Below, in pieces: positions 61,238 to 61,411 of a DNA stretch of 64,000 bases (its first letter is position 1; each line of letters starts with the position of its first letter). The position numbers were made by a program, and so were the translations under genes. Source of the DNA: Eledone cirrhosa (lineage: Eukaryota); the NCBI GenBank assembly GCA_964016885.1, contig OZ024753.1, forward strand, positions 3,720,001 to 3,784,000, read 5' to 3'. Under the pieces are notes generated by a model. The model ran no database searches, had not been told where the DNA came from, and worked only from the letters and a program-made list of their open reading frames with translations.

Positions 61238-61411
61238 AACGAAGGAAATGTGGTAAGGAACCAGATGGACCATAACGCACAAAAGTACTCAATACTTAGG
61301 GTAGTAGAGTGGGTAATAGAAACGAGTAGGACACCGACGGCTGAGCTCAAGCCGTTTCGACGGCTAATTCTGGACCCACTCATCCAGAATTAGCCGTCGA
61401 AACTCGTTCCT
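61238..61411 (-). mobile_element. Family C element retaining part of the hammerhead core
   Basis: Minus strand GATGA-GTGGGTCCAGAATTAGCCGTC-GAA-ACGGC ttgagctca GCCGT-C. Confidence 0.85.

Follow-up and report, generated by a model that had tools for sequence, protein, structure and literature searches.

Among the described systems closest to the repeats analyzed here are EN+ Penelope-like elements (PLEs), whose insertions, as laid out in passages of two papers, show an inverted, 5'-truncated pLTR copy, an optional tail and a bias towards microsatellites (PMC8557442, PMC3846280). Penelope has an internal promoter, according to a section of PMC2377424. In the hammerheads of metazoan PLEs, helix III is absent or very short, and a palindromic loop III with action as a dimer has already been described for PLE hammerheads in the sections concerned (PMC4209133); dimer action and a palindromic loop are also known from a passage on retrozymes (PMC7229834). 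For Poseidon PAc of Anolis, in vitro work has revealed two internal start sites of the reverse transcriptase (RT) with the tail lying between them, and both target strands were cut and extended (PMC11167929). Two questions about PLEs are stated to be open: the mechanism behind their inverted-repeat insertions, and cleavage by their hammerheads in vivo (part of PMC8557442; PMC11167929). Octopus-related studies count PLEs or hammerheads, and the passages concerned describe no families such as those reported below (PMC13282606, PMC6962438). A literature search for Penelope together with twin priming gave nothing on topic by title or abstract, and one for head-to-head insertion or self-priming gave PMC3846280 as the sole relevant paper among the matches listed, with subscription papers and supplements outside the scope of both.

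In this report, we analyzed a 64-kb stretch of DNA (the window), which is AT-rich, microsatellite-rich and approximately 41% low-complexity, with a focus on a family of short repeats designated C. Our main finding is that the copies of C, high in number, are PLE-type fragments that share a fixed 5' end and hold what is likely one half of a hammerhead. The junctions between its inverted arms suggest twin priming and some ribozyme cleavage, and not a stall of RT at the ribozyme core.

Read in the orientation of its GAAA, the C unit is approximately 138 nt long and has two 3' ends, a long one at 61238 and a short one at 61316, both abutting (TA)n. In three RAD runs, (TA)n loose ends were found before 61238 in 8,055, 8,973 and 11,573 reads, and before 61316 in 2,928, 2,492 and 2,545 reads. 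Eleven C loci are present in the window, mostly within (TA)n (Table 1). In many of them, an arm with the tail faces a tail-less arm head-to-head; long and short copies also occur singly, and the only head-to-tail neighbors are those at 63.5-63.8 kb, the other copies being dispersed, single or head-to-head. The PLE layout is found in C: an inverted copy truncated at its 5' end, a tail that may be present or absent, 3' ends of two kinds and a preference for (TA)n targets. The family is very probably of PLE origin. This membership rests on layout, since none of the 134 ORFs of the window gave a Pfam match to RT or GIY-YIG (three weak, unrelated matches fell below cut-off); copies this short are not expected to carry one. 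Inverted arms with TA flanks are also what MITE-like DNA transposons or assembly artefacts might leave, an origin that is most implausible given that the arms are head-to-head and unequal, that single-arm copies exist, and that inversion joints and varied spacers recur in independent reads and contigs.

Table 1. Features of family C and of related families in the window
Feature	Position	Strand	Observation
(TA)n target microsatellite at long (tail) 3' end	61215..61235	.	Sequence, read loose ends
Long arm, complete C unit	61238..61375	-	5' end 61375/6, 3' end at (TA)n; read depth drops past 61375
Optional 78-nt tail between the 3' ends	61238..61315	-	Loose ends before 61316; stand-alone short copy 63741-63801
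ACTC...GAGTRC tail motif, common to B, C and D	61285..61310	-	16 window matches, 13 in B, C or D
8-mer recurring in junction filler, likely filler source	61307..61314	+	Sequence match
Putative stem I 3' strand	61330..61335	-	Inferred from hammerhead layout; partner strand absent in every copy seen
Hammerhead-like 3' half	61336..61358	-	GAAA 61358-61355; GUC, predicted cut between 61336 and 61335
Stem III of the 61-kb copy	61355-61351 paired with 61341-61337	-	GAGCTC in loop at 61348-61343
Leader before GAAA	61359..61375	-	Second AGCCGTC, a possible stem II 3' strand, or CGAA-loop hairpin
Copy-specific junction filler	61376..61382	.	Gives GATGAG look on minus strand; reads and sequence
Short tail-less inverted arm	61383..61411	+	28-nt internal skip at AC microhomology; ends at short 3' end
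(TA)n at short 3' end	61411..61430	.	Sequence
Head-to-head C copy	22272..22469	+	5' tip on long arm
C copy	25874..25993	-	Long-arm start coincides with the predicted cut (reference position 42)
Head-to-head C copy	31793..31971	+	Short arm owns 4 tip letters absent from long arm
Head-to-head C copy	33719..33913	-	Tip on long arm; used as reference
Head-to-head C copy, then stand-alone short copy	63536..63801	+	Short arm owns 2-3 tip letters
Copies with short-arm-owned tip	C 31.8 kb, C 63.5 kb, B 9 kb, B 45 kb, E 11 kb, E 26.3 kb
Family B complete hammerheads	9208-9262, 39798-39852, 45382-45436, 52407-52461	+, +, -, +	5' end is stem I start; no Rfam match
Family D	30756-30988, 34291-34550, 61972-62206		Long head-to-head palindromes, complete hammerheads, all-TA stem III
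Family E	11135-11302, 26305-26394, 30420-30588, 10472-10558		Half-hammerhead, fixed 5' end 10 nt before GAAA, no loop palindrome

An initial annotation of this DNA had read C as the 3' half of a hammerhead, with a core of GAA, stem, GAGCTC and stem that is kept in diverged copies, the letters beside the loop being variable. The conservation is borne out. The motif GAAACRGCNNGAGCTCNGCCGTC (GAAA, a 5-bp stem, the GAGCTC loop and GUC) has 14 matches at no more than 2 mismatches in the 64-kb window, 11 of them exact, against 0 in 100 shuffles, and the 14 include the diverged copies 31716-31738(-), 40078-40100(-) and 53361-53383(+); nhmmer independently gave 15 matches at the 11 C loci. When ten C copies are aligned, 17 of the 23 columns from GAAA to GUC are invariant versus 3 of 41 outside (Fisher p 6e-8, for copies that are related and partly motif-selected). 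GAGCTC is unvarying and its flanks are variable, most stem letters being invariant too. Helix III has 5 bp and a 9-nt loop; its pairing is kept in 92% of cells of the ten aligned copies, with no covariation among them. Folding of four young long arms has stem III competing with an alternative hairpin (P 0.05-0.76). The alternative CGAA hairpin in the leader was not above its controls.

In keeping with the annotation, the C motif is likely the 3' half of a hammerhead, as judged from an architecture like that of B, a common tail motif and one copy starting at the predicted cut, and hammerhead ancestry of the family is probable. The remainder of the ribozyme did not come to light: the descriptor scan finds no complete hammerhead in C, the CUGANGA strand is absent from all 11 loci, and in neither the window nor the reads listed does C show CUGAUGA or the 5' strand of stem I. 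Stems I and II have no partner strand in the C family sequence, one copy having a 7-bp helix. Longer C copies were found neither among viral nor among prokaryotic genome contigs (0 in each), and six matches in metagenome collections were all chance matches in GC-rich DNA. No Rfam family reached its gathering score in the window, and E-value scans gave no hammerhead family for the window (best 150 of 746 matches, to hairpin-type models), for the 61-kb copy or for a complete B hammerhead; as the last also goes unmatched, Rfam is uninformative here. Type-II permuted hammerhead and HDV-like folds did not fit by eye.

Two minor observations concern the loop and the cut site. Loose ends behind 61319 include three consensus rows with GATCT for GAGCT (61342-61347), a weak lead at an agreement of 0.55-0.58; together with the preceding A, the GATCT variant is again a 6-nt palindrome. 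A G-to-T change just past the predicted cut is seen at 22375, 33890 and 61333, in one arm only of each of the three copies.

Four self-similar families in the window have the same layout; the letters B, D and E, used beside C, are those of this analysis and possibly not identical to the letters of the initial annotation. B and D hold complete type-I hammerheads, which make up 8 of the 9 descriptor matches, versus at most one in each of 30 shuffles; one D match has an altered core letter, and one match is stray. Copies of B differ by compensatory changes in stems I and II, and their stem III, with 4 bp and a CTAG or ACTAGT loop, is in the style of C; a T-T lies at the base of stem II. E, like C, retains only the GAAA half, its copy at 10.5 kb being tail only. 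Pairing of the ends of the ACTC...GAGTRC tail motif is weakly predicted (0-0.42), which does not make a firm hairpin.

Several other repeats were seen on the way. The D copy at 62 kb is a double inversion, and the fragment of core and stem II at its center has a stem I strand of another sequence. At 36227-36310, a lone ACTC...GAGTGC motif, with approximately 60 nt and then TA repeats behind it, probably represents another PLE-type tail family. In a large tail-to-tail palindrome around (TA)n at 4713-4978, each arm includes part of a B-like hammerhead as well as the end of a SINE, and further inverted repeats at 5438-5534, 5946-6031 and 18750-19434 have no obvious hammerhead core. A tRNA-type SINE, which we take to resemble cephalopod SINEs, is present in approximately 12 copies, many 5'-truncated (1175-1365, 4579-4738, 21818-22030, 23950-24149, 29513-29602, 32822-32915, 40283-40439, 40873-41136, 41992-42132, 44743-45052 and 50019-50117).

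The position at which C copies turn is not random: nhmmer places the starts of 10 of the 11 loci no more than 7 nt from a common point, and of the 13 opposite-strand joints listed from reads (of 27), 9 have one side at 61370-61376. This point is the fixed 5' end of C, 18 nt upstream of GAAA, and is common to non-inverted copies. The annotation had placed the inversion points of all families in stem II or the core. Clustering is indeed seen, but B turns at the 5' edge of stem I, and two of the three D copies turn approximately 75-80 nt upstream of the core, the third being a double inversion around a core fragment; E begins 10 nt before GAAA. Both C subfamilies begin with AGTY, which presumably fits an initiator-type start. 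That transcription starts here, and so fixes the 5' end, is a tentative proposal to which we give somewhat less than an even chance.

A different cause was proposed at the outset, namely that the C consensus continues into CUGAUGAG, and that RT stalls at the folded core and turns back. This reading has in its favor the clustered turn points and the word GATGAG in the 61-kb copy, 20 nt before GAAA at 61384-61379(-). The word is present in that copy, but it lies within a junction spacer of 7-8 nt, the inverted arm supplying the first two letters; what is actually read is CTGGATGA, which lacks a partner for stem I and does not pass the descriptor. The reads aligned to 61236-61411 (16,139 contigs of X1; 23,160, 23,820 and 26,899 reads of X4-X6) agree with a boundary and do not carry the word. 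Depth over 61380-85 amounts to 3-5% of the value over 61374-79, and the loose ends listed beyond 61375 form a mixed, AT-rich set (agreement 0.46 for 126 contigs and 0.44 for 1,007 X4 reads). The first letter past the boundary is A in the other window copies and in the loose ends, versus G in the 61-kb copy. Any read with CUGAUGAG should match as far as 61384, and the depth arithmetic gives no RAD read that ends at this position. These figures concern a minority of the RAD reads, most being cut at AATT (61366-69), with 7,214-9,479 ends at 61369, so that rare long masters may go unseen; such ends are a restriction-cut effect and not a biological feature. There are also 38, 23 and 43 reads that match the spacer to exactly 61382, which speaks for the proposal, although another locus with the same spacer may exist.

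For the spacer there is a matching 8-mer in the tail of the element itself, with AC at the join, and a further AC jump lies in the short arm. By chance, a filler would match the element itself in 1.3% of cases, which is no rarer than a core-like word (approximately 2%). Taken together, it is very probable that the filler giving GATGAG is not family sequence. As for the covarying stem II that had been noted at 40 kb, CAGGT/ACCTG is present there and a 7-bp helix can be folded before GAAA; an exact 5-mer complement is expected in approximately 0.4% of random flanks, somewhat beyond chance for one flank. Covariation is another matter: the helix occurs in a single copy, its register differs from that of the 61-kb copy, and a short self-copied insert gives the same picture. 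A loose end of an older subfamily behind 61366 (1,276-1,350 reads, agreement 0.68-0.77) was rejected as a decayed core plus stem II, as 17-20% of random trials fit equally. It extends by a median of 80 nt, its dominant sequence being like the head of the window SINE, possibly from a composite or amplified locus.

A stall at the core is also hard to reconcile with where the copies end. The turn coincides with an end point shared by non-inverted copies and lies past the expected stall; the boundary falls after the putative stem II strand has been copied, so no helix should remain to stall RT, and B turns outside its core. For the bulk of the copies the proposal is largely refuted, and we now consider it very unlikely overall. 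Long copies running from CUGAUGAG through TGGGTCCAG in register with a stem I partner would vindicate it.

How the second arm arises can be addressed by asking which arm owns the 5' tip. Twelve head-to-head copies from families B, C and E could be resolved for this count; the C copy at 25.2 kb (too diverged), the three D copies (no full reference, one double inversion) and the palindromes at 4.7, 5.4, 5.9 and 18.7-19.4 kb were left out. In 6 of the 12, the tail-less arm owns 5' letters that are absent from the tail arm, from 2-4 letters up to 26, and in the E copy at 26305-26394 the two arms do not overlap at all. The other six are compatible either with turning back or with two cDNAs. The arms of one copy share variants (2.5 versus 5.5 differences in 51 nt), so that both derive from one RNA or from one source locus, and turns of 2-5 nt are seen in three C copies.

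Self-priming, in which the first cDNA folds back and copies itself as far as the short site, is close to what has been proposed for the junction palindromes of PLEs in part of PMC3846280. It directly fits 6 of the 12 copies, and variants common to both arms and the tight turns are what it would leave. But a turning cDNA copies only what it already holds, and letters owned by the short arm alone therefore do not come from simple turning back; they would need a later inversion, deletion or assembly error as a second event in 6 of the 12 (binomial p 0.0005 if such events affect 10% of copies, 0.02 at 20%). Short-arm ownership may indeed be mimicked by a later spacer inversion, a later deletion or assembly flips. 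Self-priming also leaves unexplained why short arms end where stand-alone short copies end, and cannot draw on any sequence common to the arms in the 26.3-kb E copy; we regard it as rather unlikely. In L1 twin priming, two primed cDNAs are joined head-to-head, sometimes without overlap. Judged by the sequences at hand, the even split of the tips fits better with two cDNAs primed from both target ends, and we lean slightly towards twin priming, that is, the head-to-head joining of two separate cDNAs.

Whether C RNA is ever cut bears on the nature of the motif. Five 5' truncations are internal, and in three of them the first letter falls at the predicted cut (rough, post hoc P 9e-5): the C copy at 25.9 kb exactly, the B copy at 51.5 kb and the E copy at 11.2 kb within 4-5 nt of microhomology. 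A second 5'-end peak at the predicted cut was absent among the read matches listed. The truncations suggest that some C template RNAs were cleaved at this site; some C transcripts would then either contain the whole hammerhead or be complemented in trans. It could instead be held that C is not catalytic, now or ever, and is a non-autonomous mini-element whose GAAA stem-loop serves in protein binding, promoter function or RNA pairing. The 5' half missing from 11 of 11 loci, the lack of covariation and the competing fold would all suit such an element, and hammerhead cleavage is not needed for insertion in vitro (PMC11167929). Against it, one C copy starts exactly at the predicted cut, the B and E copies do so within ambiguity, and GAAA, U16.1 and C17 are fixed or nearly so in all ten aligned copies, which leads us to hold a non-catalytic C unlikely.

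The palindromic loop offers another role for the retained half. Kissing-loop-to-duplex dimers occur in the dimer initiation of retroviruses. Similarly, the invariant loop of C might pair two RNAs, by a kissing loop and then a duplex, and a dimeric RT-endonuclease would copy both of them from the two ends of a (TA)n double-strand cut, using a different start site for each. Head-to-head insertions of PLEs would then be explained without self-priming, and half a hammerhead would be kept for RNA pairing, with cleavage confined to long read-through RNAs or to trans action. Co-folding favors a dimer of the C stem-loop by 13.5-16.5 kcal/mol, and one of E by 8.9 without a palindrome. All three core-bearing E copies are head-to-head without a palindromic loop, hence the palindrome is dispensable for inversion. 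We find the pairing scheme improbable.

We return to twin priming for an explanation of the family as a whole, in which what was counted on the DNA (the motif, the layout, the fixed 5' end, the two 3' ends and the arm-owned letters) is joined to the following sequence of steps. C would be a high-copy, very short, pLTR-like 3' fragment of a (TA)n-targeting Penelope-like retroelement. The fixed 5' end of its RNA would fall inside a former stem II of a type-I hammerhead, or inside one still present in rare long masters, so that nearly all genomic copies would keep only GAAA, stem III with its palindromic loop, and GUC. RT would start at 61238 or 61316 and run off the fixed 5' end or, in cleaved RNA, off the ribozyme cut. 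Priming would take place at both ends of a cut (TA)n target, with the long site used for one end and the short site for the other. The 3' ends of the resulting cDNAs would then be linked, with small losses, template jumps and fillers arising at the junction, and GATGAG would be one such filler. This combination of pLTR-like fragments, a fixed 5' end, two start sites and twin-primed arms has, in our estimate, a little better than an even chance of being correct.

Compared with EN+ PLEs, as far as the passages cited above describe them, C has in common the head-to-head arms, the tail on one arm, strong 5' truncation, the (TA)n bias and the junction palindrome. It differs in that its copies are only approximately 60 or 140 nt long with one fixed 5' end, in a tail of approximately 78 nt versus 30-40, in having no linked ORF, and in that half of its junctions misfit the self-priming of rotifer elements. 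With PLE hammerheads, in the sections of PMC4209133 concerned, it shares the type-I order, the GAAA/UH half of the core, the palindromic loop III, scattered single motifs from truncated PLEs and paired motifs on opposite strands; the CUGAUGA half, by contrast, is lacking in all C copies seen. A 5-bp helix III with a 9-nt loop is unusual for the metazoan PLEs of that paper and closer to the large helix III of fungi and protists, although similar motifs are possible in its supplementary alignments. Like non-LTR retrozymes, C is a short, non-coding, hammerhead-bearing repeat related to PLE pLTRs (parts of PMC7229834 and bioRxiv 10.64898/2026.07.22.740005); retrozymes, in those parts, are head-to-tail tandems with a whole hammerhead per unit, whereas C is dispersed, head-to-head and half a ribozyme. 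C differs from L1 twin priming in that its two arms begin at programmed internal sites and, as a rule, repeat one and the same 60 nt. Poseidon PAc and C both have two start sites downstream of the hammerhead and AT-rich targets; for Poseidon PAc there are no reads starting at the cleavage site and inverted insertions are not discussed (PMC11167929), whereas some genomic copies in the window start at the predicted cut. As an element, C is ordinary in kind. With approximately one locus per 6 kb of the window, it leaves a very large genomic record with fixed start and end points, and genome-wide counts can therefore answer both PLE questions, the one through tip ownership between the arms and the other through the number of copies that start at the cut.
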